The notes below the pieces were generated by a model. That model worked only from the letters and a program-made list of their open reading frames with translations. It did not search any database and was not told the DNA's origin. This document shows, one piece after another, positions 30,832-52,324 of a stretch of 61,416 bases of DNA (its first letter is position 1; every line of letters starts with the position of its first letter). The translations under genes were made by a program, and so were the position numbers. This DNA is from Roseibium sp. GTDB lineage: Bacteria > Pseudomonadota > Alphaproteobacteria > Rhizobiales > Stappiaceae. Where the stretch lies: the NCBI RefSeq assembly GCF_025698965.1, contig NZ_JAILWL010000001.1:1-61416 (forward strand), read 5' to 3'.

Positions 30832-32241
30832 CTACCAGCCGATACCGACATAGTTGGAAGAGGTTGGGGCGTTGTTGGGGATGCGGATCAGGTCCACAAC
30901 CACGGCCTCTTCCTTCTTGGACGCGAGCGCGCTCCTGAGGGCGGGAATGTTCTGGGAGACAACAACCGCATCTGCGTCCGCGAGCGCCGTTTCCGGGGTT
31001 TCCTTCAAAAACTCCGGCAAAGCGTCCACGACAGTCTGAAGATGCGGAGCCGCATGGCGCATATAGTCGAACTGTTGGCTGATATGCGGACCAGGCTGGA
31101 TGGCCGGGTCATAGGCGGTTACCTCGATGCCGGATTTCATCAACTCCGCGATCACGTCCAGAATGGGGCTCTCGCGCAAGTCGTCCGTGCCCGGTTTGAA
31201 AGCAATGCCCATGATCGCGACTTTTCTCGCACAAGTGCGTTTGACAAGATTGAGGGCCTGGCGGACCTGCTCCTGATTGGAGGGGATCAGAGCATCGAGC
31301 ATCGGCAGGTCGATGCCGAGATGATCCGCCAGGTGTGTCACGGCGCGGACTTCCTTCGGCAGGCAGGAACCGCCGAATGCGAAGCCGGGCTTCAGGTAGT
31401 AGGGGGACAGGTTGAGCTTGGTGTCCTGAACGAAAATGTCCATGACTGCATGGCTGTCGATGCCCATTGGCTTGCACAGACGGCCGATTTCATTGGCAAA
31501 GCAGACCTTGGTCGCGTGCCAGACATTGTCGACATACTTCACCAGTTCCGCGACTTCGACCGAGGTGACGATCGGATTGATATCGACCGATGCGTAGATC
31601 CTGGCCAGGGCACGGGCAGTATATTGATCGGTCACACCGAAGACCGTTTTCGGCGGTTCGTGGAAATCCGCGACGGCGCTGCCTTCACGTAGGAATTCCG
31701 GATTGAAGCAGATGCCGAAATCCTGGCCGGCGGTTTTGTGTGAATAGCGCTCGATGATCGGCTTCATCACCTTGAGCGTCGTTCCCGGAGGAACGGAGCA
31801 TCGCAGCACGATGATATGGAATGAATCCTTGACAGCAAGGGCCTCGCCGATACTGCGGGCAACCGCCTCGATTGCGCGCGTGTCGCAACCGCCGTCCTCT
31901 GCGGTCGGCGTGCCAACGGAAACAAAGGTGATGTCGGTGGTCCAGATGGCGCGCTTGATGTCAGTCGTCGCGGACAGCAGGTCATTATCGACGCCCCTCG
32001 TCAACAGTTCCCCGAGCTGATCTTCTACTATGGGGCTTTGTCCCCATGCGATGGCATCAACTTTTTTCTCATCGACGTCGACACCAACGACGCGGTGACC
32101 AAGTGAGCTGAGGCAGGCAAGCGAAACAGCGCCGACATACCCCAGACCGATCACGCTGATCGCATCCTTGAAATCCTGAATTCCGAGCTCGGAAGCGTCC
32201 AGCTTGCGGGCGAATTGTTCATTTGAGACATACATGTTCAT
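30832..32241 (-). CDS. algD: GDP-mannose 6-dehydrogenase (AlgD-like)
   Basis: GLGYVGAV, FNPEFLREG, KYVDNVWHATKVCFANEIG, and LNLSPYYLKPGFAFGGSCLPKEVRA closely follow AlgD rather than Ugd; linked to alg8/alg44. Confidence 0.85.
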   Translation of the reverse strand: MNMYVSNEQFARKLDASELGIQDFKDAISVIGLGYVGAVSLACLSSLGHRVVGVDVDEKKVDAIAWGQSPIVEDQLGELLTRGVDNDLLSATTDIKRAIWTTDITFVSVGTPTAEDGGCDTRAIEAVARSIGEALAVKDSFHIIVLRCSVPPGTTLKVMKPIIERYSHKTAGQDFGICFNPEFLREGSAVADFHEPPKTVFGVTDQYTARALARIYASVDINPIVTSVEVAELVKYVDNVWHATKVCFANEIGRLCKPMGIDSHAVMDIFVQDTKLNLSPYYLKPGFAFGGSCLPKEVRAVTHLADHLGIDLPMLDALIPSNQEQVRQALNLVKRTCARKVAIMGIAFKPGTDDLRESPILDVIAELMKSGIEVTAYDPAIQPGPHISQQFDYMRHAAPHLQTVVDALPEFLKETPETALADADAVVVSQNIPALRSALASKKEEAVVVDLIRIPNNAPTSSNYVGIGW

Positions 32242-32277
32242 TCGACTGCTCCCAGAATGTGTTCTGGCAATTTCAGA

Positions 32278-32293
32278 AACAAGGAACGTGCCA
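32278..32293 (-). promoter_or_regulatory. sigma54 -24/-12 promoter for algD
   Basis: Minus strand TGGCACG-TTCC-TTGTT; IHF-like TTTCAGTAAGTTA at 32323-32335. Confidence 0.65.
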
Positions 32294-32363
32294 AACGCAG
32301 GTTTGAAAAATTTCTTTATTTATTTCAGTAAGTTACGGTTACTGTGGCAAAGTGGGTAAAGTT

Positions 32364-32404
32364 TCGGGTTTTCGAAATTGAAAACCCGATTTTCAAAATC
32401 CAAC
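32364..32404. promoter_or_regulatory. putative upstream activator sequences (algD)
   Basis: TCGGGTTTTC-GAAATT-GAAAACCCGA (perfect 10-bp arms) plus a weaker copy, TTTCAAAATCCAAC, 21 bp further. Confidence 0.55.
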
Positions 32405-32735
32405 TTTTTAGAAGCGCAATGCGAAGGAAAAAATCGCTTACCCAGGTGTCGTGAAATTTTGAAAGGAAAGGTCCTTCAGGCAACTTCGCTTCCTGTGCGA
32501 AGCGATTTTGTCCAGACCACGACCAGCGCCATCTGAAAACGCGACCGGCAGGTCGCCCTTATTATAAAGAGTACGCGGGACCGATTGGCGTAATCCTGAA
32601 ATTCGCGATTTCAAAAAGACCCCTTTTCGTTTCGCGAAGTTCCGGCTGGATCAATCCATCTCGACTTTGCTGACGCTACCTTTAAGTAATTGGAAAGCTG
32701 ATATAAATCATAAAGTGGAGCTGATTTTGAAATTG

Positions 32736-32751
32736 TGGCCGACCGATTGCA
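32736..32751 (+). promoter_or_regulatory. sigma54 -24/-12 promoter for the HAD-NUDIX operon
   Basis: TGGCCGA-CCGA-TTGCA; IHF-like site (minus strand TTCCAATTACTTA) at 32683-32695. Confidence 0.65.
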
Positions 32752-32790
32752 TTTGCTTCTCCAGAACCAATTGAACAATGGAGAGCAGTC

Positions 32791-33633
32791 ATGTTTTCGA
32801 AAGTTGCGTTTGAGGCCATTGGTCAGGTAACCGGGCCTGAAATCGTTGACCCGCTTGCCGCTGGCGAAAAAGTCTTCCTGTTCGATCTGGATGTGCTTGT
32901 CGCGAGCCGTTTCGGTCGGATGGATCATGAATTTGCCGGCTATGTACGGGAATTTGCCCGTTCACATCCATGCTACCTGCTGACATCGGCCAACTACTCT
33001 GAGGTAATGTCGCGTCTGCCCGGGTCCGTCCGCCATGCCTTTGAAGGTGTGTTTGCCTCGTGCGGTACAGAGCTTTGGGTGAACAATGAAATACTGATCC
33101 GTCACGAACACCTTTTCTCCGACGATCTTTATGAGTTTGTCGCCAAGGCGGTCCAGCAAAGCGCCTATTCCGGGAAGGAAGCACCATTGCTGGAATGCGG
33201 GTCTGCCACCCTTCGTTTGAGCCTTGCCGGCATTCGAAGCACGGCCGGTCAACAAATGGCCTATCGGCGCTGGGAGAGAGAACATCGTGAACTTGATGTG
33301 ATTGCAGATGAAATGAAGGCCCGTTTTCCGGATCACACGGTATGCCGGGACAGCGATATCAGCCTGATGATCACACCCAATACTTTCACCAGTGCCCGGG
33401 TTCATGAACATATCCTGAAACGCCACAAGGCATCGCGCCTGATTGCCTATTTCGCCAACCGATCCGCAGGTGGATTTGCAAAACCGCTCTGCGACGCCCT
33501 GTTGACCTCGGATGTCGTGTCGACAGTGAATGGGCCGAGCGATGTTAGCCAGTTGCTCAGCTATGAAATGCGCTCAGCTCCTGATGCCGGTCAACGGCCG
33601 CACACCATGAACCGGATGCTTCAGGAGGCTTGA
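32791..33633 (+). CDS. HAD-IIB protein resembling eukaryotic/phage-type phosphomannomutase, motifs degenerate
   Basis: VFLFDLDVLVASR (motif I DxD), YLLTSANY (motif II-like) and FASCGTELW; motif IV acidic residues not visible (YFANRSAGG). Confidence 0.6.
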   Translation: MFSKVAFEAIGQVTGPEIVDPLAAGEKVFLFDLDVLVASRFGRMDHEFAGYVREFARSHPCYLLTSANYSEVMSRLPGSVRHAFEGVFASCGTELWVNNEILIRHEHLFSDDLYEFVAKAVQQSAYSGKEAPLLECGSATLRLSLAGIRSTAGQQMAYRRWEREHRELDVIADEMKARFPDHTVCRDSDISLMITPNTFTSARVHEHILKRHKASRLIAYFANRSAGGFAKPLCDALLTSDVVSTVNGPSDVSQLLSYEMRSAPDAGQRPHTMNRMLQEA

Positions 33634-33634
33634 T

Positions 33635-34219
33635 ATGAACGCCATCGATCAGAAGGGTTTTGATCGTAGCTGCTGGTCACTTGTCGAGAGCCGCAAGGTC
33701 TTTGATGCGGGCAATCGATTGCGGGTCCTGCGCCAGACGGTGTGTCTGCCCGACAATCGGATCGTGGACGATTATTACCGCATCGACCTGCCGTCATTCG
33801 CAACTATCTACGCGCTGACGGAAGACGGCAATGTCCTGCTGTTGCGTCAATACAAGCATGGCGTCGGCGAGGTTTGCCTGACATTGCCGGGAGGGCAAAT
33901 TGAACCGGGTGAAGATCCCGAATTCTCTGCCCGGCGCGAACTTCTGGAGGAGACCGGCTATGGCGGCGGCCGCTGGCTTCAAGGCCCGTCACTGGTGCTT
34001 CACGGCAACCAGAGGATTGCGCGCGCACACATCTATGTCGCGCAACATGTCATCAAGCTGGGCGAGGCAGGTTCAGGTGACCTTGAAGAGACGCAACTGG
34101 TGTTGAAGCCCCGGCAAGATCTGCGCCGTGCCATGCTTCAGGGAGAGCTGCCGATCACGACCCATGTCGCCACAATCGGCATTGCGGAAACGCTGCTTGA
34201 AGCAATATCGCGTGGGTGA
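33635..34219 (+). CDS. NUDIX hydrolase (ADP-sugar/NDP-sugar pyrophosphatase-like)
   Basis: Nudix box GQIEPGEDPEFSARRELLEETGY; LLRQYKHGVG. Confidence 0.9.
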   Translation: MNAIDQKGFDRSCWSLVESRKVFDAGNRLRVLRQTVCLPDNRIVDDYYRIDLPSFATIYALTEDGNVLLLRQYKHGVGEVCLTLPGGQIEPGEDPEFSARRELLEETGYGGGRWLQGPSLVLHGNQRIARAHIYVAQHVIKLGEAGSGDLEETQLVLKPRQDLRRAMLQGELPITTHVATIGIAETLLEAISRG

Positions 34220-34226
34220 GACGGAC

Positions 34227-34375: not shown

Positions 34376-34540
34376 TGTTTCTCTATGCCAGGGCCGTCAA
34401 CGCCTCAGTTTCGCACGGGATTTATGTGACTCAGTTCGTGCTTGCATTGTTGTTTACCATACGTTAAGAAAGTAGACAAGGTTCGTGACTCAATTTATGA
34501 AGAAAAAACTCTTCGGAAATTCGAGAAAAACGGACCTGCT

Positions 34541-35188
34541 GTGATCGAGCACAACGACGAAAGAGAATGGGAAACGCGCGTGTACGGCTATGCCCGCGTC
34601 AGCACAGAAGACCAGAACCTTGATATGCAGATCCGCGCCCTCAACGATTACGGATGCTCCTATATCTTCAAGGAAAAACGGTCTGCGTACGGGGTGAAGC
34701 GCAAACAGCTTGAATGGCTAAAAAAGAGCCTAGCGCCGGGTGATACGCTTGTTGTCTGGAAGCTGGATCGGTTGGGCCGTGATGTCGGTGAACTGATCAC
34801 GTTCATGGCAATGTTGAAGAAGAAAGAAGTGAACTTCGTCAGCCTGAATGATCAGATTGATACCCGTACGGCCATGGGAAACTTCATGTTTCATCTGTTG
34901 GCGTCATTGGCGCAGTTGGAACGCGATCTGGTAGCGGAACGAACTAGGGCAGGGATGGACGCAGCTCGTAAGCGCGGTTGGCATCCGGGGCCGGAAACAC
35001 TCATTAAGCGGTTGGAGCGGGAAGACCCGAAGCAGCTCAAGGCGCTGCGGAAAGACATCGCGGACCCGAAAATGTCTTGGCGAGCACTCCATAAGAAGTA
35101 TGGTTATGCAGTTGCAACTCTACGGCGACACTTTGAAGGTGAGCGCAAAGAGGCATTGGCCAAGTTAGCCGAATTGGATGAAGAATGA
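34541..35188 (+). CDS. small serine recombinase (resolvase/invertase family, C-terminal HTH)
   Basis: Catalytic YGYARVSTEDQN, GDTLVVWKLDRLGR, IDTRTAMGNFMF, ERDLVAERTRAGMDAARKRG; C-terminal HTH (MSWRALHKKYGYAVATLRRHF). Start uncertain (GTG 34541). Confidence 0.93.
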   Translation: MIEHNDEREWETRVYGYARVSTEDQNLDMQIRALNDYGCSYIFKEKRSAYGVKRKQLEWLKKSLAPGDTLVVWKLDRLGRDVGELITFMAMLKKKEVNFVSLNDQIDTRTAMGNFMFHLLASLAQLERDLVAERTRAGMDAARKRGWHPGPETLIKRLEREDPKQLKALRKDIADPKMSWRALHKKYGYAVATLRRHFEGERKEALAKLAELDEE

Positions 35189-35192
35189 ATAG

Positions 35193-35870
35193 GTGGCAGA
35201 GTTGTTAGGCGCATTTACTTCTAGCACGTCAGGCCTGCTGGCGCTCGGTGCAATGTTTTTCGGCGTAGTTGCATTGCTTCTAGGAGGATTTGCCGCCGCG
35301 ATTAGAGATAAAGAAAGTGCTGATGCGGAAAGCGCTTATCAAGCAAAACTAGACCAGAAAACCGACAAGATAACCGTATTGCAGGACGAAATTAGTTCTC
35401 TGCAAAGTGAGACTATTAAGATGATCACTGGAGGCGATTCATTTCCTGTGGTGAATTTGGTGCAACACCCTAAACTCGGGATGGGTAAGTTCTCCCCCGA
35501 GATTTGGGTTTCTGGGGCTTACCACCTCAGAAACGTGAAAGTCTCAATCACTATAGTAAGTGGGGCTGAGACCAATAAATATAGCTTTGAAGAAGTAAGT
35601 CTTCGTGCTTATGGCGGATTGCCTTTTGATCTTATTGTAAACGCCGCAGCGGAGGGTGGCGCTACTTTGAGTGTTCGGACATCTGCGGAAAATGGAACTT
35701 GGTACCAAAAGATCGACTTCCGGAAAGCCGACGACGGACGGTTCCAGTTCAAGACAAAGATTGTTCGTTTTGGTCACCCTCAAACGACAGTTCTTAAGAA
35801 GGACTTCGACGAGGACCTTAGCTTTGGTTCCATTGACGAAATGAAGCGGTCCCCGACGTTTGTACAATAA
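35193..35870 (+). CDS. hypothetical membrane-anchored protein (cargo)
   Basis: N-terminal TM helix, coiled-coil-like stretch and beta-rich C-terminus; its stop TAA lies in ATAAGGAGCC. Confidence 0.7.
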   Translation: MAELLGAFTSSTSGLLALGAMFFGVVALLLGGFAAAIRDKESADAESAYQAKLDQKTDKITVLQDEISSLQSETIKMITGGDSFPVVNLVQHPKLGMGKFSPEIWVSGAYHLRNVKVSITIVSGAETNKYSFEEVSLRAYGGLPFDLIVNAAAEGGATLSVRTSAENGTWYQKIDFRKADDGRFQFKTKIVRFGHPQTTVLKKDFDEDLSFGSIDEMKRSPTFVQ

Positions 35871-35876
35871 GGAGCC
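35867..35876 (+). repeat. partial copy of the element right-end motif
   Basis: ATAAGGAGCC at a gene junction. Confidence 0.55.
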
Positions 35877-35882
35877 GAGGTG

Positions 35883-36101
35883 ATGGGAAAAACGTTCCAG
35901 GTTCTCGATTTCGAGGATAGCGGCATCCACGGAATTGCGATTGCACCGATGAAAGATCGTTTGAGCGTAAACTGCACGAGCGATGGTGAGATTGATGCTG
36001 CAATCCAGAACCTGAAAGATGATGCGGACCGTATTGCCAAGGTCATGAAACGCGAACTTCGAAAGAGGAAGAAACAGCCTCTTTTCGGTCGTGACTCATA
36101 G
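35883..36101 (+). CDS. hypothetical protein (~72 aa, cargo)
   Basis: AAGGAG/GAGG RBS; ends ...GRDS* inside the repeat motif. Confidence 0.65.
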   Translation: MGKTFQVLDFEDSGIHGIAIAPMKDRLSVNCTSDGEIDAAIQNLKDDADRIAKVMKRELRKRKKQPLFGRDS

Positions 36102-36106
36102 GAGCC
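36090..36106 (+). repeat. copy of the element right-end motif
   Basis: CGTGACTCATAGGAGCC, one A shorter than the terminal copy. Confidence 0.75.
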
Positions 36107-36149
36107 TGTGAGTTGCTTGCAAATCATGGAACTAAGGAGAGTTGTAGTT

Positions 36150-36587
36150 GTGAGCGTTTGGGCAAAAGTAGAAGGCGTAGGCGGCCTAATATCCGGGGTT
36201 GCAGCATTTATCGTTGCTGGAGTTGCAATTTATCAGGCAAGTACCGCAAATCAAAAAACTGATGAACTAATAGAGAATTACAACAAGACCTTTTTCGCAA
36301 AAAATAGTGGTTTCAATAAATTGTTTCTTACTCCTGTTCGAGAGGAAAAAGTACTTACTCTTATGAACTCATTTGAAAGAGTAAACTGGGCGCCAATGAC
36401 CGTGGCGGAGTTGTGGGAGGCCGAAGAGGCTGCCGAGTTGGGGGTGAGTAAGCAAGAATTCATTCAGATCATAAGGGCAGGCTTCGGCATGGGCGTACTT
36501 AGGGAGGTCTTTCCAAGGTCAGGAGAGAAGATAGAGCGCACTGCGATTGGCAAAATTGAGTGGCGACCTGTGTTTCGCATAAATTAG
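36150..36587 (+). CDS. hypothetical membrane protein (cargo)
   Basis: N-terminal TM helix (GLISGVAAFIVAGVAIY) and possible wHTH-like C-terminus. Start uncertain (36108/36126/36150; AAGGAG precedes GTG 36150). Confidence 0.6.
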   Translation: MSVWAKVEGVGGLISGVAAFIVAGVAIYQASTANQKTDELIENYNKTFFAKNSGFNKLFLTPVREEKVLTLMNSFERVNWAPMTVAELWEAEEAAELGVSKQEFIQIIRAGFGMGVLREVFPRSGEKIERTAIGKIEWRPVFRIN

Positions 36588-36724
36588 TAGTTCGGAAAGT
36601 CAGGTAGAAACTAGGGAGGCCGTTGCAGCTATGCCCGGTGGTGACTGGAACCTAGCCGAAGCCAATGAGCGCTTTGGCGGATCTGGTCGAGCTGGTGGCA
36701 GGAAGAAAAAGTAGGTTTTTTGTT

Positions 36725-37174
36725 ATGGCTTTATCGGAATATTGGAAGAGTATAATTGCCAACACAGTTCCAATACTGGTTGGTGGAGGTTTGGTAGTTG
36801 GTGGTTTCGATTATCTAACGAAAGATCGCGGGCACGACATTGAGATGGTCAAGATAGGTGTCCAAATCCTTAGAGTGGATCCAAATAAAAATCCAGAAAT
36901 TGGAGATGCTGGGCGCGAATGGGCGATGCGTCTCATAAATCGTTATTCTGGCGAATCGCTTACGGTATCAGAAATGGATCAACTCAGAACTTCTCCCATT
37001 GTGGATTGGTACAATGATAACACCCCGAACAGCGTCTTGTATGGTGCGGGCTACAAACGGATTACTCCTAGCAAGGCGACCGCTCAATTCATTTGGGAGA
37101 ATGATAAAGAACTCGTTGATCAGATAGCAGCTCACAATCTCCAATGTGAAAAAGATGCGAGTTGTCTTGAATGA
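36725..37174 (+). CDS. hypothetical membrane protein (cargo)
   Basis: N-terminal TM helix (IIANTVPILVGGGLVVGGF); stop TGA is the first triplet of TGACTCATAAGGAGC. Start 36725 or 36665. Confidence 0.6.
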   Translation: MALSEYWKSIIANTVPILVGGGLVVGGFDYLTKDRGHDIEMVKIGVQILRVDPNKNPEIGDAGREWAMRLINRYSGESLTVSEMDQLRTSPIVDWYNDNTPNSVLYGAGYKRITPSKATAQFIWENDKELVDQIAAHNLQCEKDASCLE

Positions 37175-37186: not shown

Positions 37187-37190
37187 GGAC

Positions 37191-37370: not shown

Positions 37371-37372
37371 CT

Positions 37373-38848
37373 CTACAGCTCCGCCTCCGAAAGTTCCGCT
37401 TCCTCATCCTCATCACTCTCACCATCCTGCGCTGCCCAGATTTCCTTCTTGCGGTAGAGCGTCGACGGGCTGACCTGAAGGACGCGGGCGGTCTTCGGCA
37501 GGCTGCCGCCGCACGCGTCTATGGTTGCCTCGATCATTTGCCGTTCCAGCGTGTCGAACGACTGACCGAGTGCGAGGGTCAGGCTGGGCCAGGAACCGCT
37601 TGCCGCCGCCGCGACAGGGGTGATGCCTTGCTGCGGTGAGGGGACCTGCAGCGGAACGGACCCGGAGTTTCGCGATGCGGAGGGAACGCGCCCCTGAAGC
37701 GTCGACAACATGTCCACATCAACGATTGGACCTTCGTTCAGGACAACAAGATTGCGGATTGTATTTTGCATCTCCCGGACGTTTCCAGCCCAGGCGTGGG
37801 CCATCAGCGCTTCTTCCGCTTCCACGGAAAATCCGTCGAACTGTTTCCCTTCCTCTGACGCGAATTGCGTCAGGAAATGCCGGGCGAGTTCGAGAATATC
37901 CGCCCCGCGCGCCCTGAGCGGAGGTAGTCCGATCGGCAGGACATGAAGCCGGTAGTAAAGATCCTCTCGGAAACGGTTGGCTTCAACCTCTTCCAGCGGA
38001 TCCCGGTTGGTCGCGCAGACAATGCGCACATCGATTTTCTTCAGGCTGTCGCTGCCGACTTTCTGGATCGTGCCGCTCTGCAAGAACCGCAGCAGTTTGG
38101 CCTGAAGGTTCAGCTCCAGTTCACAGATTTCGTCCAGAAACAGTGTACCGCCGTCAGCGCGGGCGGCCGCTCCGTCGCGGTCTGACGTTGCACCGGTAAA
38201 GGCACCTTTGACGTGACCGAAGATCTCCGATTCAATCAGGTCTTTCGGGATGGCCGCGCAATTGAGCGGGATAAAGGGCCGCTTGGCCCGCGGGCTGGAT
38301 TTGTGGATGGCCTCCGCGCAGACTTCCTTGCCCGTTCCGCTTTCACCGGTAATGAAAACAGAAGCATTGGAGCGGGCCACGCTTTCAATCATCTTGTAAA
38401 CCGCGGTCATCGGCAGGGAAGACCCGACAAACCCGTGATGTGCCTTGGGATTTGACGGCTGCCTGACCTCCTCGACAACTTCGGTCAGGGTTTCACGCTC
38501 AAGGGCATTTCTTGTGGTGGTCACCAGCCGTTCCTCGGCAACGGGTTTGACGAGGAAGTCGTAGGCACCGGCCTGCATGGCATCGACGGCGGTCTTGATC
38601 GAGCCGGAGCTGGTGACCACGACCACGGTCACCGGGAGTTGCTCTTCCCGAATGGTGCTGAGCACCTCCAGCCCGTTCATATCCGGCAATTGCAGATCCA
38701 GGAGTACGACGCTGACGCCGCCCTTGCGCAGCCGCTCGAGCGCCGCCTTGCCAGTCTCCACATGAAGCGTGTCAATGCCGGCCCGTGACAGATGGTGACC
38801 ATAGACGGTGGCCAGCGGCAGGGCGTCTTCAACAATCAGGACTTTCAA
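37373..38848 (-). CDS. sigma54-dependent response regulator (REC-AAA+-Fis HTH), LuxO-like
   Basis: LLDLQLPDMNG, GESGTGKE, GAFTGA, FREDLYYRL; C-terminal VSPSTLYRKKEIW resembles LuxO-type tails. Confidence 0.9.
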   Translation of the reverse strand: MKVLIVEDALPLATVYGHHLSRAGIDTLHVETGKAALERLRKGGVSVVLLDLQLPDMNGLEVLSTIREEQLPVTVVVVTSSGSIKTAVDAMQAGAYDFLVKPVAEERLVTTTRNALERETLTEVVEEVRQPSNPKAHHGFVGSSLPMTAVYKMIESVARSNASVFITGESGTGKEVCAEAIHKSSPRAKRPFIPLNCAAIPKDLIESEIFGHVKGAFTGATSDRDGAAARADGGTLFLDEICELELNLQAKLLRFLQSGTIQKVGSDSLKKIDVRIVCATNRDPLEEVEANRFREDLYYRLHVLPIGLPPLRARGADILELARHFLTQFASEEGKQFDGFSVEAEEALMAHAWAGNVREMQNTIRNLVVLNEGPIVDVDMLSTLQGRVPSASRNSGSVPLQVPSPQQGITPVAAAASGSWPSLTLALGQSFDTLERQMIEATIDACGGSLPKTARVLQVSPSTLYRKKEIWAAQDGESDEDEEAELSEAEL

Positions 38849-42380: not shown

Positions 42381-42570
42381 GGTTCTCTCCTCTCGGCTCT
42401 CCGGTTCGGGAGGTGTACCTTTACGGAAGTTAGCTTTTTTGTGCTTGCTCATTGGTTATCAATTTTCAATTTGTTGAAAACAGGTCCCGAACGCCAGAGT
42501 ATTTGCCGGGATCGACTTCAGTCCGGTGTGCGCCTGCAAGGGCGTGCAGGCGCACATATCCCGATCTTCG

Positions 42571-45309: not shown

Positions 45310-45521
45310 TGTGCCATCCCCCTGGTCAAGGATTGTCTTGGTTGGTCCGCGGTTACGTGCCGCGACATCTTCGGGTCGTTATCAAACAGCCAGTCGATTT
45401 TCCGAGGCGCCTGATGGTTCCCATGGGGGACATTGGTGATTTCAGCGGCGACACAGGCACCGACAACAAATCCGGTCAGGCACAAAAGAGCATCCTGAAG
45501 AGCGCGATTGGGGTCAGCCAT
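45306..45521 (-). CDS. small hypothetical protein (71 aa) translationally coupled at both ends
   Basis: ATG 45521 overlaps the upstream stop (ATGGCTGA), and its TGA overlaps the Sel1 gene ATG (ATGA); hydrophobic N-terminal segment. Confidence 0.55.
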   Translation of the reverse strand: MADPNRALQDALLCLTGFVVGACVAAEITNVPHGNHQAPRKIDWLFDNDPKMSRHVTADQPRQSLTRGMAQ

Positions 45522-46782
45522 TGGCCTGCCTCCAGATCCGGCAGGACTTGCCTTCAAGAAGTTCAAGCGTTCCCTCCCTTCGCGAATGCGCCGTGTCCTG
45601 AGGCGTGACAGGGCAAACGAGATCGGTGCGTCTTGCCGTGGCTGCTGTCACATGGTCAGGATCGGGGTCGAGCAGCAGCAGCAACTCGCCGACAATTCGT
45701 CGCGCCGGAGTGGAGCTGAAGTGATAGGCGTCGGTGAAGTTGTCGAGGTCGCGTGCAAACGGAGCGTCGAAGTCGAGATCGACGACGGGTGCAAGCGTGG
45801 ACAATCTTTCCCGGAACTTGTGGTTTGCCGAAGTCAACCCGAAATCGGATATCCGACGCTGCATTTCGGAAATTGTCGGTGGGATGAAGAACACGAGGTC
45901 GACCTCGTTTTCATCGCACCAGGTGGCGATTTCCTCAACCATCTTCCACAAGTCGTCAGATTGTTTGAAGCGACGCCAGTCAGCAGCACCATTGGTACCG
46001 ACCTGCTTGGCAAACAATTGCGGCAGGTCACGTTCGAGAGTGATTTCCGGCCAATAGCCAGCCCAGTGGCCGAGTCCGTAGCCGCGGCCATGAAAGACGG
46101 TTGGAAGCACAAGTGTTCCGTGCGGTGCTGAAAGGGCGCACTGGTCGCACAGGGCCGGGTCCAGAAGTGCGTCGACCGTCAGTGTGTTGAGCGCAGAAAA
46201 TTCTGCTGCCTGCGCCGAATGAACGGGCCACAATGCCGGGTTTTCAAACATCTTGAACACACCCGAATACCGCGCCTGAAGCAGCCTCCAGCCGGTCTTG
46301 GCGACAAACCAGTTCGAGTAATAGGAGAAAGGGTCGTTTGCGAGTGCAATGGCTTCCGGTACCCGGTTCATTCCACCCTTGAAGCGCGCATCCATGCTGC
46401 GTAGCGGCAGGCTGACGATCAGGGTTTCCAGGTCCGCGGTGTCGCGCAGATACTTGAATGTCTCGTAGATTTCATAAACGGTCGCGCCGCCATAAGCGAA
46501 ATTATAAACGTCGTCCCGTCCAAGTTCCTGCCAATACTTGTCTTGCAGGGCGCGCGCGCGGCTGTCCCCAAGGATGACCGTTGGCGCTTTCAGCCGCGGA
46601 TACTCGATCATCTTGTAAAGCGGGTAATGCGCCTTGACGCTGATCTCCAGTTTGTCGAGATCAAGATCGAGCAACTGATTGTGGTCATAAGCGTCAACGA
46701 CGAGGTTGAAGGCAACCGGAGAAAGGGCCAGCATTCCGGTAAAAGCCATAGCCGCAGCGTAGAGTTTTGGTTTCAGTTTCAT
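45514..46782 (-). CDS. SGNH-like periplasmic O-acyltransferase partner (AlgJ/AlgX/DltD-like role)
   Basis: N-terminal TM helix; block I VILGDSR, block II YNFAYGGAT, block V FTDAYHF (DxxH); same operon as the MBOAT. Confidence 0.7.
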   Translation of the reverse strand: MKLKPKLYAAAMAFTGMLALSPVAFNLVVDAYDHNQLLDLDLDKLEISVKAHYPLYKMIEYPRLKAPTVILGDSRARALQDKYWQELGRDDVYNFAYGGATVYEIYETFKYLRDTADLETLIVSLPLRSMDARFKGGMNRVPEAIALANDPFSYYSNWFVAKTGWRLLQARYSGVFKMFENPALWPVHSAQAAEFSALNTLTVDALLDPALCDQCALSAPHGTLVLPTVFHGRGYGLGHWAGYWPEITLERDLPQLFAKQVGTNGAADWRRFKQSDDLWKMVEEIATWCDENEVDLVFFIPPTISEMQRRISDFGLTSANHKFRERLSTLAPVVDLDFDAPFARDLDNFTDAYHFSSTPARRIVGELLLLLDPDPDHVTAATARRTDLVCPVTPQDTAHSRREGTLELLEGKSCRIWRQANG

Positions 46783-46818
46783 TGGGTGCCCCCTTGAATT
46801 CGTTTCGAGGACCTAAGA

Positions 46819-46834
46819 AACAAGATCGGGGCCA
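46819..46834 (-). promoter_or_regulatory. sigma54 promoter for the SGNH-Sel1-MBOAT operon
   Basis: Minus strand TGGCCCC-GATC-TTGTT; IHF-like 46863-46875; three UAS-like repeats at 46885, 46909 and 46931. Confidence 0.6.
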
Positions 46835-46958
46835 GACGGCAGGTCTTTTAAAAGATGATATAAAACAACAGGTTGGAGAATTGTTTTCAATTCGGGAAGG
46901 AAAGCTGGTTTCGATTTTGGGGAGAAAACTTTGCAAAATGGGAAGTCTGCGGCAGACA

Positions 46959-48560
46959 CTATGCCGCTGCAGACAGGCTCAGAACGTGTGAAATCATGCG
47001 GCCGCTAGGTGGTTCAATCAGCCCGGCCATCAGGCAGACGCCCAGAAACAGCATGGTGACGTAAAGGAGGGTGAGGTAGCTCGCCATCCAGTTTTGCAAT
47101 GTTGCAATCAGACCGTCGCCATCGCCCGCCCGCTGGTCGCCGCGATTGGACCAGCGCTGCTTCGACAGCCGGAAGATGCAATAGACTTTCACCGACGCGT
47201 TGATGAGCTGGTTGAAATACAAAATGAACGGATAACTGAGATCGACTTTCCTCGAATATTGGAAGAGGAACAGCGACAGCAGCATGCGCGTGATGCAGAT
47301 AAAAACCACGTAACCGAGGATGTAAAACGGGTCGTAAAGCACAGAGGTACAGATTGCCAGAACCGGGCTGACCAGCATGGTCCACATGGACACGCGTTGG
47401 TCCAGAAGGCACCACCAGATGAAGAATGGCATTCGACCCGGGCCTAGCGCCAGGGCACGGGTTCCATTGCGCAGCATGTTGCCTGACCAGCGCCGGAAGT
47501 TTTGAACCATCCGGTCCATGCCGGAGCCTTCGATCACTTCGACCGTGTAGCCCATGGCATCGGGCACATAGAGCATGCGACAGCCAGACTGGAGCATGTA
47601 GTACCAAGTGCTCTTGTCGTCGCCGGACAGAAACCGGAATTTACCCCACAGCCAATGCTCCAGATGGTCGGCTTCCAACAGACGGATGAACTTCAGCTTC
47701 ACAAGGTGATTGGCGCGGAACACCGACATGCGCCCGGTCAGGGTCAGGACACGGCCTGACAGGGAATGGGACTGCATGGCCAGCCGGCGCTGGGCAAAGC
47801 GCATGGTCAACCAGTTTGCAATCCAGCGCGGACCGATGCACAGCACTTCCTCGTCGGTCGTGCAGGCTTGAAGATCCGGATAGAGCTTGAAAAGGGGAAG
47901 ACAGGCACCAACGGCATTCTTGGCAAGGATGAAGTCGCCATCCATGAATATGATGAGATCGTCATCCTCGACATCACCGCGGCTCATGGCTCTGAGCACC
48001 AGGCCAATTGCCAGCCGCTTGCCGGGTTGGTTCTGTCGAACGACATGCAGCTTGATGTCGAGATCGCTCCATTCACGGACAAGAAGATTTGTGATCAGTT
48101 CTTCATCATAGGCGTCACCGGAACCGAGCCAGATGGTTCCGGGAACACCTGCGTCGCGAATTTCACGGCATATGGAACGGATGACTTTTTCGGTGATGTC
48201 CCGGTGTTCCTTGTAAGTGGTCATCATGAAATGAAGACGGCGAGGCCGCCAGCCGTCCTCCCAGATCTTCCGGCCCGCGTCACGCATGGATGGGTAGACG
48301 AAGCGTCCGTAAATCCAGGCACGGACAGCGTGGGTCATCCACCAGCCGTAGCGCCAGATGCCGAGAATTCCGATGACAAGTGTGATCTCTTTTGTCGTTG
48401 GGCTGAAAAAGACATTTTCGACGGTTGTCAGGCCGACAAAACAACAGCCGAAATAAAGACTTATCTGGAACAACGCAAAGGGTGTCCATTTCGCCAAACC
48501 CTTCGGCCGGTGCGTGATTTCGTCGACGTCATAGGTGCAGGCAGGGTTGCGGTCTTGCAT
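46959..48560 (-). CDS. alg8: GT2 processive glycosyltransferase, Alg8-like mannuronan synthase
   Basis: GILGIWRYGWW, GKRLAIG, MDGD (DxD), VLTLTGRMSVFRA, FLSGDDKSTWY, FRRWSGNMLR, LLDQRVSMWT. Confidence 0.85.
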   Translation of the reverse strand: MQDRNPACTYDVDEITHRPKGLAKWTPFALFQISLYFGCCFVGLTTVENVFFSPTTKEITLVIGILGIWRYGWWMTHAVRAWIYGRFVYPSMRDAGRKIWEDGWRPRRLHFMMTTYKEHRDITEKVIRSICREIRDAGVPGTIWLGSGDAYDEELITNLLVREWSDLDIKLHVVRQNQPGKRLAIGLVLRAMSRGDVEDDDLIIFMDGDFILAKNAVGACLPLFKLYPDLQACTTDEEVLCIGPRWIANWLTMRFAQRRLAMQSHSLSGRVLTLTGRMSVFRANHLVKLKFIRLLEADHLEHWLWGKFRFLSGDDKSTWYYMLQSGCRMLYVPDAMGYTVEVIEGSGMDRMVQNFRRWSGNMLRNGTRALALGPGRMPFFIWWCLLDQRVSMWTMLVSPVLAICTSVLYDPFYILGYVVFICITRMLLSLFLFQYSRKVDLSYPFILYFNQLINASVKVYCIFRLSKQRWSNRGDQRAGDGDGLIATLQNWMASYLTLLYVTMLFLGVCLMAGLIEPPSGRMISHVLSLSAAA

Positions 48561-50134
48561 CACTTTGCCTCCAGAAACTGTTCCACCGTGCGCCAGACCA
48601 CGTTGCCGCGATAGCGCTCGAAGTAGATATTTACAGGCGTTCCGCTGGTCGGCAGTTGTCCCGAAACCGGCGTGAGGATCACCTTGGCGGATCGGGAGTC
48701 CGGTGCGCGGAAGCGATGCGTTTCGCTCACTTCATCGACAAAACCGGCGGTACGGTCCACTTCAGAGACTTCGGCGGTCACCCAGCGGTCATCTGCCGGG
48801 AAATAGAGGTTGGCGGGGCTTCCGATCCGGACCTGCAAAACCTCCTCCTGGGTCAGAAAGGCGGTAATGAACTCGGTGCCTGTTTCTTCGACGGTCACCA
48901 TCGGTTCGCCCTGTTTGACGGCATTGCCCGGAACGAAGCCGACATCGATGATGCGACCGGAAAACGGTGCTGTGACCGTCTGCTGCGTTTCCTTCTTGGA
49001 AAGTTCTGCAACAACCGATTTCTGGAACGTTTGCTCGGATTTCAGTCGCGCTACCCTGGCTTCCATTTCCGCCAGGCGGCCGGCAAAAGCGTTTCCGGTG
49101 AAAAGGCGGATGCTGTCACCGCCATCGATCAGTTGCTTGAGTTCCTGGATATGGATTTCTTTTCGCGCCAGATCGGAAACAACTTGCTTTAACTCAAGTT
49201 CAGCTGCTTCAACATCCTGAGCAAGGACAAGACCCTTGTTTGCGAGGGTTTTGACCCGCACCAGCTTCAATTCCGCGTTTTCCTTGGCGAGAACCAGCCC
49301 GTCCAGCTGGGATTCCGCCTGACGCACATTGTTGCGAGCAATAAGAGAATAACCGTTGGCCCGACGCCTTTCTTCGCTGAGCAAAGTCTCCATTTCCGCA
49401 AGTTTTGCGTTTGTCGACGCCAGAACGGTTCTCGCGCGGCGCAGGTCGTTCTCGTGATTGACGTTTTCCATCACAACAAGCTGCTCTCCCGCCAAGATGT
49501 GTTGTTCGCCGACGCTGGGGGCATGAAGAACTCGCCCGGAAATTGGCGCGGTTACCTGAACCCTGTTGGCGCTGACAACAGCCGATTGAACTTCGAGACG
49601 GAACAGGGAAGCAAATGCATAGACGCCGACATATCCGAATACCGCCAGGCCGAGCGTCAGATAAAACAGGCTCATCATGATCTGTCTGATTGGCCAGCGA
49701 CGGACGGGCATGTCCTTCACGGGGTTAGGGTCGGGTTTGGTCGGCACAGGTGTCACCGGTGTATCGATCCGCACGATCGTGTCGGCAACATCAGTCATCT
49801 TGCCGCGGACAAGGTCCTCGACGAAATGCTGCATCAGGGACCTTTCACGTTCGCCAAGTTGCGTAAACGCAAAGGCAACCTGCCCGTTTTCCTCGTCGAG
49901 GCGAACAACCCTCGCATCGGCCTTCAACGAGATATTGAAACCCTGGAAAGGCAGGGTGCACGTTAGTGAATGATCGGACCCGTTTTCGGGAATGTTGCAC
50001 GAATACCCTGAGATCCGGCAGCCGCCGAGCCCCCAATCGACAGCATCAAAGGTTTGCCCGTCCAACGTAACGCGCATCGGCGCCGTTACCCTGTAGTGCA
50101 GCCTTTGGCTGGGTCTTTCGTGAATGATTTCCAC
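48560..50134 (-). CDS. alg44: Alg44-like co-polymerase (PilZ + TM + membrane-fusion/HlyD-like domain)
   Basis: IIHERPSQRLHYRV (RxxxR) and DWGLGG (variant of D/NxSxxG), a single TM helix, coiled coil and lipoyl-like halves (VTAPISG, VTAPFSG); coupled to alg8. Confidence 0.8.
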   Translation of the reverse strand: MEIIHERPSQRLHYRVTAPMRVTLDGQTFDAVDWGLGGCRISGYSCNIPENGSDHSLTCTLPFQGFNISLKADARVVRLDEENGQVAFAFTQLGERERSLMQHFVEDLVRGKMTDVADTIVRIDTPVTPVPTKPDPNPVKDMPVRRWPIRQIMMSLFYLTLGLAVFGYVGVYAFASLFRLEVQSAVVSANRVQVTAPISGRVLHAPSVGEQHILAGEQLVVMENVNHENDLRRARTVLASTNAKLAEMETLLSEERRRANGYSLIARNNVRQAESQLDGLVLAKENAELKLVRVKTLANKGLVLAQDVEAAELELKQVVSDLARKEIHIQELKQLIDGGDSIRLFTGNAFAGRLAEMEARVARLKSEQTFQKSVVAELSKKETQQTVTAPFSGRIIDVGFVPGNAVKQGEPMVTVEETGTEFITAFLTQEEVLQVRIGSPANLYFPADDRWVTAEVSEVDRTAGFVDEVSETHRFRAPDSRSAKVILTPVSGQLPTSGTPVNIYFERYRGNVVWRTVEQFLEAK

Positions 50135-50172
50135 TTTGGCATTTCCTTCATTGCCGATGACAGGGACACAGA

Positions 50173-50188
50173 CGCAAAGGGGAGGCCA
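50173..50188 (-). promoter_or_regulatory. sigma54 promoter for alg44-alg8
   Basis: Minus strand TGGCCTC-CCCT-TTGCG; IHF-like 50237-50249; UAS-like TTGCAAAATTGAAA (50296) and TTTCGAAATTGCAA (50338). Confidence 0.68.
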
Positions 50189-50431
50189 AAAACCGTGGGG
50201 CTGGAACTTGGAAGATTCTAAATTGAAGAAATCATATAATCCATTGAAATTATTGTGCTTTTATAAAGTTAAGAACTTGTTCATTATACGGGAGTTTGCA
50301 AAATTGAAATTGAAAACCGGACGAAGTCAGCTGCGGTTTTCGAAATTGCAAAGCCCGAAGCTGGTTCCATGTAGGAATGCCGGGGCGCATTCTTGCGACC
50401 CGGCGTTTCTCTCTCCAGAGGCTTTGAAACG

Positions 50432-52324
50432 TCAGAATATGAAGCAGTTGCTGTCGAACAAGGAGGTGACCGACTGGGTCCCCACGTCATTCAAAGTGCA
50501 CACATCCTGGTAGGTTCCGTTGCCGTTCAGGTCGACGGCAAGTGTCGTATCTCCATCCAGAACCGTTGCTTCCAGCTTAGCCAGGAAGGAAGGATCATCG
50601 TCAAATCGGGCAAGATGGCTGAAATCCAGAAGGTCGACGCCGATTTCAAAATCGGTGATTTCATCCACTCCCGTCAGATCCCAGGTCCGGAAGACGAACG
50701 TGTCGGCACCTTCGCCGCCTGTCACTGTGTCGGCACCTCTCAGACTGCGAATCTGATCATCGCCGGCACCGGCTTCAATCACGTTTACCCCGGAGGTTCC
50801 TTTCAGAATGTCATCGCCGCCACCTGACTTGATATTGTCGATGAAGTGCAGGGTATCCGTACCGATTTCCAATCCATGGCCGCGTTTGTTGTGCAAGGAC
50901 ACCGAAAGGTCGACATCAAAGTCGGAGTAATCGACGGTGTCGTTGCCTTTGCCGCCATGCATGTAGTCGTTGCCGGCATCTCCATAGAACGTGTCATCGT
51001 CATGACCGCCGTAGAGCTTGTCATTGTTGTGACCGCCGCGGAGTTCATCGTTTCCGGCACCACCTTTTAGGGTGTCGTCTCCATAGCCACCAATAAGAAT
51101 GTCGTTCCCGGAACCGCCAATGAGGCTGTCGGTGCCGTTGCCGCCATCCAGCATGTCGTCTCCGGTACCGCCATTCAGCGTGTCATTGCCGGTTTCTCCG
51201 TAAAGGACGTCATTGCCATTGTTGCCGTTCAGCTCGTCGTTGTGATGGCCTCCGTAAAGTGTGTCGTCGCCTGAATTGCCGTAAAGCGAGTCTATTCCTG
51301 AACCGCCGAAAAGCATGTCGTTACCGCTGCCGCCATGCAGGTCGTCATAACCGTTGTTGCCATAGAGCCAATCATCGCCAGAGCGACCATGCAGTTCATC
51401 GGCACCGGAACCGCCATGAAGAACATCATTGTCGGATCGCACGATCTCTGGACGATTGCCCTGTCCCGAACCGGTATCGCCCATGCCAATTTGCTGCTGA
51501 TAGTGAGCGTTTAGAAGCAAAGCGTTCTGAATGCCGATATCGACGGTGAAGACGCTGTCATCGAAGTCTCGGTCACCGCCGTTGAATAGGTCTTCAAACC
51601 CGAGCGTGATGGTGCCCGCATCCGTTTTCAACACACCTGTCGTGTGTAGAAGGTTATCCGGGTTGAGCCCAACCGTGTCGCCATAGGCGGCGGTGTGATA
51701 GGGATCGTACTGGATCAGGGTCTGGGTGCCGTCGGCCGCGATGTGATAGAGGCGGGGGCTGTCGCTGTTCAACGTAGCGACAGTGCCATCACTGTTCAGA
51801 AACTGGAGCGTTCCGGTTTCCATGTCGAGACCTGCATAGCCATTGTTTCGGCTATAGCCGTTTGAGACGATGAAGAAGGCGATCTTGTCGCCTGCCTGCA
51901 CATCCAGAAACTCACGGGACTCGCCTTGCACGAGGTCACCGCCACTCCCTTGCAAGGAAGCATTCGGCCAGATGAAATTAACATCGGTGATTGTGCCGTC
52001 GTCAGCAACCTTGTAATAGCCGAACGTGTTCTTGTAGCCGGCGGTCTCGCCTTCGAAAACGACCGACACCGGGTGATCACCCGTTATTGCCATGGATGTC
52101 AGCTGGACGAGATTGGGGCCACCGGAACCGTAAAGTATGTCGTTACCGTTATGGCCGTAAAGCGTATCATCACCGGTACCGCCCCAGATTTCGTCGTTAC
52201 CGTAATAGCCCTTCAACGTGTCGTCGCCAAAGCGACCGGACATGACATCTGAATGGACCGATCCATTCAGCACGTCATCCTCATTCGTCCCGATCACGGG
52301 GCGTGTTGCAGGTAAGCTTGCCAT
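50432..52324 (-). CDS. RTX/hemolysin-type Ca-binding repeat protein with DUF4114-like domain (type I secretion substrate)
   Basis: Many GGxGxDxLx nonapeptides; GETAGYKNTFGYY and LGFEDLFNGGDRDFDD; no signal peptide; C-terminal T1SS-like tail (DEITDFEIGVDLLDFS). Confidence 0.85.
   Translation of the reverse strand: MASLPATRPVIGTNEDDVLNGSVHSDVMSGRFGDDTLKGYYGNDEIWGGTGDDTLYGHNGNDILYGSGGPNLVQLTSMAITGDHPVSVVFEGETAGYKNTFGYYKVADDGTITDVNFIWPNASLQGSGGDLVQGESREFLDVQAGDKIAFFIVSNGYSRNNGYAGLDMETGTLQFLNSDGTVATLNSDSPRLYHIAADGTQTLIQYDPYHTAAYGDTVGLNPDNLLHTTGVLKTDAGTITLGFEDLFNGGDRDFDDSVFTVDIGIQNALLLNAHYQQQIGMGDTGSGQGNRPEIVRSDNDVLHGGSGADELHGRSGDDWLYGNNGYDDLHGGSGNDMLFGGSGIDSLYGNSGDDTLYGGHHNDELNGNNGNDVLYGETGNDTLNGGTGDDMLDGGNGTDSLIGGSGNDILIGGYGDDTLKGGAGNDELRGGHNNDKLYGGHDDDTFYGDAGNDYMHGGKGNDTVDYSDFDVDLSVSLHNKRGHGLEIGTDTLHFIDNIKSGGGDDILKGTSGVNVIEAGAGDDQIRSLRGADTVTGGEGADTFVFRTWDLTGVDEITDFEIGVDLLDFSHLARFDDDPSFLAKLEATVLDGDTTLAVDLNGNGTYQDVCTLNDVGTQSVTSLFDSNCFIF

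Follow-up and report, generated by a model that had tools for sequence, protein, structure and literature searches.

A conserved alginate-type synthase cassette of Roseibium and other marine Alphaproteobacteria with a long-hairpin Alg44-like adaptor and a putative TolC-type export route

Introduction

Among bacteria, alginate synthesis has been characterised in Pseudomonas and Azotobacter, whose operons run algD-8-44-K-E-G-X-L-I-J-F-A. Here we analyse a related polysaccharide cassette from Roseibium sp., which occupies positions 30,832 to 52,324 of a 61,416-nucleotide stretch of DNA (contig NZ_JAILWL010000001.1 of assembly GCF_025698965.1; hereafter the window). The cassette shares with those operons an AlgD-type GDP-mannose 6-dehydrogenase (GMD), an Alg8-family synthase, an Alg44-like co-polymerase made of a PilZ domain, a transmembrane helix and a membrane-fusion domain, an AlgI-like MBOAT protein and, in the cassettes of relatives, AlgA. 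It differs from them in having an Alg8 of a separate clade, alg44 ahead of alg8, a co-polymerase hairpin of 159 instead of 28 residues, an SGNH protein of another family, an RTX partner and several transcription units likely controlled through sigma-54 by a LuxO-like activator, and AlgE, AlgG, AlgL, AlgX, AlgJ and AlgF were not found in the genome. Judged by sequence comparison, it is a real and conserved variant of the alginate-type synthase, the new part of which is a long EmrA-like hairpin with TolC-docking residues. We suggest, with a probability of roughly 0.55, that the cassette makes beta-1,4-polymannuronate and exports it through a TolC-type tunnel and not through an AlgK/AlgE pore.

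The architecture of Alg44 and its role in the response to cyclic di-GMP (c-di-GMP) have been described (PMC8461298), as has the clearing of stray polymer by AlgL in P. aeruginosa (PMC8829089). A survey of 64 alginate operons (Bundalovic-Torma et al. 2020, PMC7112194, supplementary file 9, row 23) includes an 'atypical alginate operon' of Dinoroseobacter shibae which runs alg8-algA-algD, its AlgD measuring 1410 bp and its Alg8 1593 bp, and for which no AlgK, AlgE, AlgG or AlgL is called. These sizes and this order match L178 and L179, two loci on the roseobacter branch of the clade to which the window belongs, and by gene sizes and order, not by sequence, the D. shibae operon is probably a member of that clade. 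Its branch differs from the window in carrying AlgF/I/J/X and a hairpin of 117-121 residues, and no Alg44 is called for it in the survey. The parts of that paper covered here propose no export route for the atypical operon, and its supplementary files 1-12 hold no matches for Labrenzia or Roseibium. Alginate genes including algE have also been described in one alphaproteobacterial genome from kelp (PMC9238374).

Export of a polysaccharide with the help of TolC has precedents. In Sinorhizobium meliloti, TolC is required for the mixed-linkage glucan specified by bgsBA, and direct conduction of the polysaccharide by TolC is left open in that work (PMC13438883). The BgsB-BgsA-TolC system resembles the Roseibium cassette in its membrane-fusion gene ahead of the glycosyltransferase family 2 (GT2) gene, its control by c-di-GMP, the lack of a dedicated porin and a TolC encoded elsewhere. 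Unlike in Roseibium, the product is a neutral glucan built from UDP-glucose, c-di-GMP binds the synthase itself, and there is no PilZ adaptor, GMD or acylation module (PMC13438883). For cellulose in Thermosynechococcus vulcanus, a synthase with an HlyD-like adaptor and a TolC-like exporter has been proposed to replace the tetratricopeptide repeat (TPR)/porin pair (Maeda et al. 2018, as cited in PMC8892547); the synthase there is of the BcsA type and not of the Alg8 family. We found no study of the present cassette when searching for alg8/alg44 in Alphaproteobacteria, alginate in Dinoroseobacter, Labrenzia or Roseibium, or Alg44 with TolC, in a literature that left most subscription papers outside the search. 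A link with brown-algal alginate was considered and dropped, as the algal GT2s have no Alg8 homology (PMC11468063).

Results

The window encodes AlgD- and Alg8-family enzymes

A preliminary description of the window, made from its letters, had listed AlgD-, Alg44- and Alg8-like proteins, a Sel1-repeat protein, an AlgI-like MBOAT and an SGNH protein in several transcription units. Every open reading frame (ORF) that it named was recovered at its position with an intact frame; coordinates below refer to the minus strand unless marked as plus. The source assembly measures 6.37 Mb in 678 contigs and is 99.5% complete. Among named relatives, Roseibium/Labrenzia records come closest to the GT2 (84-94% identity), and the window very likely comes from the genus Roseibium. 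Relatives of the GT2 gene were found on 310 stretches of a genome collection; counts among genome loci are taken from the best 80 of these 310, with 10-kb flanks and many short contigs, and a further sample of 80 metagenome loci brings the total to 160.

The dehydrogenase (30832..32241, 469 aa) finds P. aeruginosa GMD (1MFZ) as its best PDB match at E 2.6e-113, followed by a UDP-glucose dehydrogenase at 1.8e-76. It is 44% identical to canonical AlgD, lies nearer to GMD than to UDP-glucose dehydrogenase and has the GMD-type stretch ahead of the catalytic Cys. In a tree of 40 rows (a quick search with no bootstrap) it stands among 38 GMD-type rows (support 93), apart from the two other dehydrogenase paralogues of the genome.

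The GT2 synthase (46959..48563, 534 aa) was compared with reference operons from gammaproteobacterial genomes in which AlgG, AlgL, AlgA, AlgK, AlgE, AlgX and AlgF had been confirmed by family models. It is 38% identical to canonical-operon Alg8 over 454 aa (E 1e-94), and the DxD, GDDK and RW sequences, which we take to be the catalytic motifs, are aligned. In a comparison covering 301 genomes of the phylum, all Alg8-family matches reach at least E 1e-58, and the GT2s that follow do no better than 5e-8. Full-length similarity, shared motifs and this score gap place the GT2 in the Alg8 family. A search of PDB sequences with it gave no match, and NCBIfam models match neither Alg8 nor Alg44, the canonical operon included; orthology therefore rests on direct comparison and trees. 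In the GT2 tree, built by a quick search with no bootstrap and no non-Alg8 outgroup from 27 of the 80 genome loci and 36 other rows, the window sequence belongs to a clade that takes in 34 of the 64 rows, has support 100, sits on a long stem (3.25 changes per column) and is separate from the Pseudomonas-type rows. Sequence comparison, trees and structural matches together bear out the proposed orthology of AlgD, Alg8 and Alg44.

For precursor supply, an AlgA gene (47%, E 2e-137) lies on another contig of the genome, and two PGM/PMM-family genes lie on other contigs.

The Alg44-like adaptor carries a long hairpin with a TolC-binding type of tip

The alg44-like gene (48560..50134, 524 aa) precedes the GT2 gene and overlaps it by 4 nt. 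The coupled order noted in the preliminary description recurs among relatives: an alg44-like gene is present in 73/73 genome loci with room upstream of the GT2, an arrangement far beyond chance, and lies directly ahead of the GT2 gene in all mapped loci except L022. In that Roseibium record (L022:7126-9995) the alg44-like gene, with inserted ORFs, and the Sel1 gene are both split, which suggests that the cassette is decaying there.

The adaptor protein joins a PilZ domain with RxxxR, one membrane helix and an EmrA-like membrane-fusion domain, and its gene adjoins alg8, as expected of Alg44. In its AlphaFold2 model (predicted local distance difference test, pLDDT, 81; predicted template modelling score, pTM, 0.47) the PilZ domain matches that of Alg44 (4RT0) with Z 14.8 and a root-mean-square deviation (rmsd) of 2.4 over 104 aligned residues. 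The best fold matches of the adaptor are EmrA and EmrAB-TolC; EmrA 4TKO aligns with Z 16.9 and rmsd 8.3 over 313 residues, and Foldseek returns EmrA at E 9e-20. The genome also holds about 20 frames with a GGDEF-type motif.

Compared with Pseudomonas-type Alg44, the protein has about 135 extra residues. The segment that lies between its two lipoyl halves spans 159 residues in the window and 158-159 across the main clade; in five gammaproteobacterial rows it spans 28-32, and in six canonical-like alphaproteobacterial ones 4-9. At its tip, Arg293 is kept in 74/75 and Leu297 in 72/75 rows of the genome set, which includes, among others, the window itself, roughly 28 close kin and an outgroup, and whose thresholds excluded short-hairpin types. 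Among the further metagenome loci the hairpin is 157-165 residues long in 60/63 scored copies, and in these long copies the tip Arg is present in 60/60 and the Leu in 59/60, at a median hairpin column conservation of 40%. An RxxxLxxxxxxS/T motif binds TolC in MacA, AcrA and HlyD, with a permissive third position (PMC3391258), and we therefore read the near-invariant Arg and Leu at the adaptor tip as a TolC-binding RLS motif.

The genes and the motif of a tripartite exporter are thus found together: a long hairpin, an RLS tip with Arg and Leu kept and the third position variable, and TolC-family genes in the genome, namely two full copies and a housekeeping orthologue interrupted by a contig end. 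At L065 and L226 a TolC-family gene lies within the cassette, between pmm and nudix-alg44-alg8; a metagenome peptide-pattern search found no relatives of this in-cassette TolC, and a protein search found only distant ones. Four Hellea-type loci have a hairpin of 69-70 residues with the tip missing, and these are the sole loci with a porin ahead of alg44. The porin gene is of the Porin_4 family (L063:3973-5007; also L069, L071 and L076) and is a candidate for a third export route.

Two further observations were set aside. TolC is present in 26/26 genus members, a count that is uninformative since genomes without the cassette are included, and an OEP gene beside the GT2 of outgroup L182 is part of a resistance-nodulation-division (RND) pump and was not counted. 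Separately, L140, L145, L147 and L148 hold distant pairs of Alg8-like and long-hairpin Alg44-like genes with the tip motif kept and no GMD or modifier genes recognised nearby; two of them are in 1.6-Mb genomes.

Canonical export, epimerase, lyase and acetylation genes were not found

The preliminary description had recognised no AlgE, AlgG, AlgL, AlgF or AlgA in the window, and this is confirmed. Genome-wide the picture is split: AlgA is present on another contig as well as in the cassettes of 28/80 relatives, whereas neither family searches nor tblastn with canonical queries (best AlgX E 0.009) recovered AlgE, AlgL, AlgG, AlgX or AlgF from the genome, and 4-5 complete relatives gave none either. 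In the AlgX and AlgF family searches no control matched in the run, and the models were confirmed separately on L177. AlgJ was not found by tblastn or family search of the genome. AlgG occurs in 0/28 clade genomes versus 13/16 canonical or canonical-like genomes. No full-length PF13372 (AlgE) match was obtained in the genome or in the 28 clade genomes, the same search being positive in control genomes. AlgL was found in neither the genome nor five relatives, and a PF05426 alginate lyase gene occurs in 1/160 related loci (L279), inside a cassette without U0, a gene described below.

The canonical AlgK/AlgE pair is accordingly lacking, AlgE not having been found and the Sel1 protein falling far under the AlgK cut-off; of the AlgI/J/F/X acetylation set, an AlgI-like protein alone is present. 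A weak AlgE-family match 12 kb from the cassette of G418 was rejected, as it sits among NMT1 transporter genes, and so was an 'AlgE' match in L075, a 100-aa antisense frame inside alg44.

The cassette is widespread among marine Alphaproteobacteria

The best 80 loci come from Roseibium, Pelagibius, Denitrobaculum, Anderseniella, Sneathiella, Lentilitoribacter, Cohaesibacter, Hellea and others. They hold an alg44-like gene in 75, SGNH in 66, Sel1 in 63, MBOAT in 63, RTX in 51, U0 in 44, LuxO-like in 38, AlgD in 35, AlgA in 28 and PMM/HAD in 17 cases. Minimal cassettes consist of alg44-alg8-algD-RTX only, and a roseobacter-like branch has the AlgF/I/J/X set in place of the other modifiers. Among sampled members of the genus, 19/36 carry the type seen in the window and two a more distant type; among sampled Alphaproteobacteria 5/400 have a 57-70% match and 16 more have distant Alg8-family genes only. 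By its sequence, the window set is a member of a separate, strongly supported Alg8 clade of marine Alphaproteobacteria and not a one-off.

A second, canonical-like alphaproteobacterial type, algD-alg8-alg44-algA, lies outside this clade (L104:8297-20000, L105, L106, L136-L139, L180, L183, L184). Most of these clusters encode a protein of about 1,200 aa with an AlgG-like beta-helix at its end, AlgL is frequent, and there are long Sel1/TPR proteins; the Alg44 lacks the hairpin, AlgE often goes unrecognised, and the type occurs in two Roseibium-genus genomes. Alg8-like matches are also seen on plasmids of Rhizobium, Loktanella and Salipiger.

Conserved sigma-54 sites probably tie the units to a two-component system

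Next to the cassette lie a hybrid histidine kinase with a Tll0287-like sensor, PAS domains, a receiver and an Hpt domain (38880..42452, assigned by family search) and a response regulator of 491 aa with an intact GAFTGA loop (37373..38848). The best family of this activator is LuxO, and its score for the LuxO equivalog NF041946 is 577 bits against a cut-off of 800. The kinase adjoins the cassette in 13/13 Roseibium-genus regions.

An untrained sigma-54 pattern was found ahead of alg44 in 64/78 relatives, ahead of the SGNH gene in 37/70 and ahead of algA in 24/31, where shuffles expect 0.1-0.4 (alg44: 0.3), and in no relatives ahead of alg8 or the kinase gene. A matrix trained on the alg44, SGNH and algA sets also detects sites ahead of algD in 37/51 and of HAD in 13/30 relatives, neither of which was used for training; 57/70 upstream regions of relatives' SGNH genes score 10 or more bits, the matrix being partly trained there. 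In the window the matrix finds sites 55 nt ahead of alg44 (50173..50189, 17.6 bits), ahead of algD (32279..32293, 12.9 bits) and ahead of HAD, with weak ones ahead of the SGNH (46819..46835, 7.8 bits) and RTX genes. A plain consensus scan of the whole window gave 3 matches versus 5.7 expected, so that positional conservation across relatives is the sole promoter evidence.

A de novo search of 27 alg44 upstream regions, without a null control, returned a 13-bp palindrome that matches LuxO sites from chromatin immunoprecipitation sequencing (PMC10328515, Table 1). The arrangement recalls the LuxO-sigma-54 circuit of Vibrio in the family of its activator and in the alg44 palindrome. It differs in an activator below the LuxO cut-off, in a single hybrid kinase with its own Hpt and in likely targets that are polysaccharide genes and not qrr RNAs. 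The shared sites, the palindrome and the neighbouring LuxO-like activator suggest that the scattered units are likely one regulon under the kinase-activator pair, and synteny and conserved sites link to the cassette the two-component system that had been described as dedicated to it.

Acylation module, Sel1 protein and RTX protein

The MBOAT acyltransferase (42571..44079, 502 aa) is 42% identical to AlgI (E 8e-89), and its His323 is present in 96/96 rows. The SGNH-type O-acyltransferase/esterase-like protein (45514..46782, 422 aa) has a weak DUF1574 match and no ALGX match and is outside the AlgJ/AlgX family by sequence; Ser74, Asp351 and His354 are kept in 70/71 rows. From these invariant catalytic residues the MBOAT-SGNH pair is likely active. 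The O-acylation and lack of epimerisation that the preliminary description proposed for the product are predictions.

The Sel1-repeat protein (44083..45309, 408 aa, PF08238) has a hydrophobic N-terminal segment and scores 39.8 bits against NF038194 (AlgK), whose cut-off is 700; its likeness to AlgK appears to lie in the repeats only. The RTX calcium-binding repeat protein (50432..52324, 630 aa; PF00353 at E 7.8e-70, PF13448) has a DUF4114 core and no hydrophobic segment. Its gene accompanies even minimal cassettes, with varying core domains, and a search with the core retrieved its own family only (score 0.78). It is likely a secreted, Ca2+-binding partner of the polymer.

The window copy is derived by deletion, insertion and a degenerate phosphomannomutase

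Two changes that the preliminary description had missed set this copy apart, a gene deletion and a resolvase insertion. In 13/13 extended regions of the genus the order is MBOAT-U0-kinase-activator, with NUDIX and HAD on the opposite strand and then algD. U0, a gene of about 650 aa, follows MBOAT in 26/26 Roseibium-like loci with room and in 44/57 loci with room overall, starting about 13 nt after the MBOAT stop in relatives. It was not found in searches of the genome, in which a remnant of its 3' end remains as a scar at 42453..42570. An independent contig from an estuary library covers 42478-42780 ungapped and with 4 differences, running from within MBOAT to 93 nt beyond its stop; this supports a genuine deletion, and is no proof of transcription. 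One public run contained 0.11 of the sampled words. The preliminary description had called the system minimal: the genes here are indeed few, but this is partly due to the strain's deletion of the conserved U0.

In relatives, U0 has an N-terminal hydrophobic segment, and its predicted fold (pLDDT 87, pTM 0.88) is likely a beta-propeller joined to an (alpha/alpha)6 barrel. In fold comparisons GH105 ranks first (Z 19.2, rmsd 3.5, 286 aligned), followed by GH76 (Z 19.0), and many families are tied at Z 17-19. Distant relatives number 218, with Glu, Asp, His, Tyr, Asn and Arg residues conserved over 77 rows, and weak GH88, GH76 or epimerase matches were obtained for 4/34 distant homologues. Pfam, a PDB profile search and the ESM Atlas gave no family name. 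We suspect, by analogy with AlgL, that U0 is a trimming or clearing enzyme, and it is a candidate for a new carbohydrate-enzyme family.

The insertion (34442..37174, plus strand) consists of a serine resolvase (PF00239) and three orphan ORFs without a family, and lies outside the system. Its GC content is 49% versus 56% for the cassette; it is absent in 13/13 Roseibium-genus relatives and separates the activator from NUDIX, which are at most 40 nt apart in 12/13 relatives. Terminal repeats were sought and none were found.

The HAD gene (32791..33633, plus strand) had been called PMM-like, PMM standing for phosphomannomutase. Its product is 27% identical to the cassette PMM of relatives (E 2e-25) and derives from a eukaryote-type PMM, but it has no Pfam match, motif I is altered, and the catalytic Lys and motif IV Asp residues, as we assume their roles to be, are lost in 14/14 Roseibium rows. 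It is likely a pseudo-enzyme. Its intact frame of about 280 aa has a sigma-54-type site of its own in 13/13 genus relatives. In other genera the cassette PMM is intact and matches PF03332 at E 2.8e-33; a gene of this family takes the place of AlgC in the polysaccharide cassette of L032 (5853-6605) and of 16 other loci.

Discussion

GMD orthology, the Alg8 score gap, AlgA in 28/80 and PMM in 17/80 cassettes and the L279 lyase favour mannuronan as the product, which we regard as very probable. The long hairpin with its kept tip, the EmrA fold, the in-cassette TolC, the loss of the tip in Hellea-type loci with a porin and the lack of AlgE favour TolC-type export, which we consider probable; the different export route suggested in the preliminary description is thus likely.

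In the mechanism that we propose, GDP-mannose would come from housekeeping AlgA/ManC and PGM/PMM enzymes, whose genes are seen elsewhere in the genome, and would be converted to GDP-mannuronate by the orthologous dehydrogenase. The PilZ domain's binding of c-di-GMP, as its motifs and fold suggest, would activate the Alg8 polymerase. The EmrA-like hairpins would then form a duct docked tip to tip with a TolC-family protein, consistent with motif, fold and gene context. An optional MBOAT-SGNH-Sel1 module may O-acylate the chain, U0 may trim it or clear stray polymer in most relatives, having been lost in the window strain, and, as the weakest step, the Ca2+-binding RTX protein may join the polyanion outside. 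The hybrid kinase and the LuxO-like activator would drive several of the promoters at which sigma-54 sites are seen.

Several points weigh against this mechanism. Its chemistry, expression and binding steps are drawn from sequence and predicted structure. Given the long stem of the Alg8 clade, donor or linkage could have shifted. In PilZ the serine of D-x-S-x-x-G is Gly in the window and in 28/75 rows; the third RLS position is Thr/Ser in 46/60 metagenome copies and Leu in the window. Four distant outgroup rows also carry the tip motif, which is general among long-hairpin adaptors and so may be inherited. The in-cassette TolC occurs in 2/160 loci of a single lineage and the porin swap is confined to the Hellea type. 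PF13372 gives weak partial matches in 10/28 clade genomes and is also missing in 8/12 canonical-like alphaproteobacterial genomes, five of them with hairpins of 4-9 aa, so that the absence of AlgE is not specific to the clade. SGNH, Sel1 and U0 proteins that work on the chain in the periplasm are hard to reconcile with a sealed duct, and the authors of the mixed-linkage glucan study cannot exclude an indirect role of TolC (PMC13438883).

In the most serious alternative, the same mannuronan leaves by the usual path, Sel1 serving as an AlgK-like scaffold to an unrecognised porin elsewhere and the hairpin being a mere spacer. In its favour, 63/80 loci have a Sel1 gene, whose product is weakly similar to AlgK, the chain must be accessible to periplasmic modifiers, and AlgE often escapes detection in canonical-like alphaproteobacterial systems as well. 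Nevertheless, minimal loci without Sel1 (L041, L042, L074, L078 and others) keep the full hairpin and tip, the tip is lost where a porin joins the cassette, and an in-cassette TolC exists; we consider this alternative rather unlikely. TolC docking could also serve the secretion of the RTX protein alone, the polymer leaving otherwise or staying cell-bound. The RTX gene does travel even with the minimal cassette, and an indirect role of TolC via a secreted protein has been raised for S. meliloti (PMC13438883). Yet no type I secretion ABC transporter is among the conserved cassette genes, and the adaptor has PilZ gating and shares translational coupling with the synthase, which makes this the least probable of the explanations considered.

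Other alternatives concern the product and the state of the locus. U0 could be a new C5-epimerase or remodelling enzyme, or the Alg8 clade could form another linkage; relatives would then make a G-containing or different polyuronate and the window strain an unmodified form. In favour of this, U0 represents an (alpha/alpha)6 family without a name in which Glu, Asp, His, Tyr, Asn and Arg residues are conserved, it directly follows alg8 in several loci, its fold matches include cellobiose 2-epimerases and dermatan sulfate epimerase (Z 15-18), and the long Alg8 stem would fit. But its top matches, GH105 and GH76, are hydrolases, it is absent from 13/57 loci with room, and a PL5 lyase occurs in one cassette without it, and we judge this idea improbable. 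Finally, the locus might be decaying or silent in the window strain, whatever its role in relatives: U0 is deleted, a resolvase element inserted and the PMM degenerate, and P. aeruginosa does not survive losing its clearing lyase while it produces alginate (PMC8829089). Against decay, all core frames are intact with catalytic motifs, the promoter sites are retained, the PMM is degenerate genus-wide, 13 other loci also lack U0, and near-identical pieces occur in an RNA library, which is no proof of transcription; decay appears still less probable than an epimerase role for U0.

If export of mannuronan through TolC is correct, unepimerised mannuronan is a product of cultivable marine Roseibium and of many further Alphaproteobacteria; this would matter for the chemistry of marine biofilms and offer a non-pathogenic source of polymannuronate. 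The clade also supplies natural variants (long hairpin, in-cassette TolC, short hairpin with porin) and two residues with which to address conduction by TolC. A broader interpretation, which we put forward tentatively and hold to be somewhat less likely than not to be right in full, is that a widespread and apparently unstudied marine lineage makes natural polymannuronate by a c-di-GMP-gated Alg8-Alg44-TolC machine, the first case of a polyanionic synthase product passing through a drug-efflux tunnel. Distant Alg8-like outgroups share the long hairpin and tip motif, so the TolC route is possibly the older one; the AlgK/AlgE route would then have arisen by hairpin loss, and U0 would be a new mannuronan-processing family.

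Accessory and neighbouring genes

A small accessory ORF (45306..45566) with one hydrophobic segment is specific to Roseibium, with 32-54% matches in Roseibium-like loci; the gap of about 208 nt that holds it is retained in these loci and absent from other genera. The NUDIX hydrolase gene (33635..34219, plus strand; PF00293) is present in 13/13 Roseibium-genus regions and in several other genera, and we would guess at a role in control of the nucleotide-sugar pool. An ARAGORN call of tRNA-Trp at 23395-23484 lies inside a kinase gene of the opposite strand, is probably false and was treated as spurious. At 10310-12634 a UDP-glucose dehydrogenase is paired with a sugar transferase, separate from and unrelated to the cassette. 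Otherwise the window holds ordinary neighbours (14-7403, 12826-24282, 27032-30702 and 52638-61416), comprising a cbb3 oxidase (fixNOP-GHI), a branched-chain-type ABC transporter with a two-component pair, Fur with a Mn/Fe ABC transporter, tricarballylate genes and a Tct transporter.

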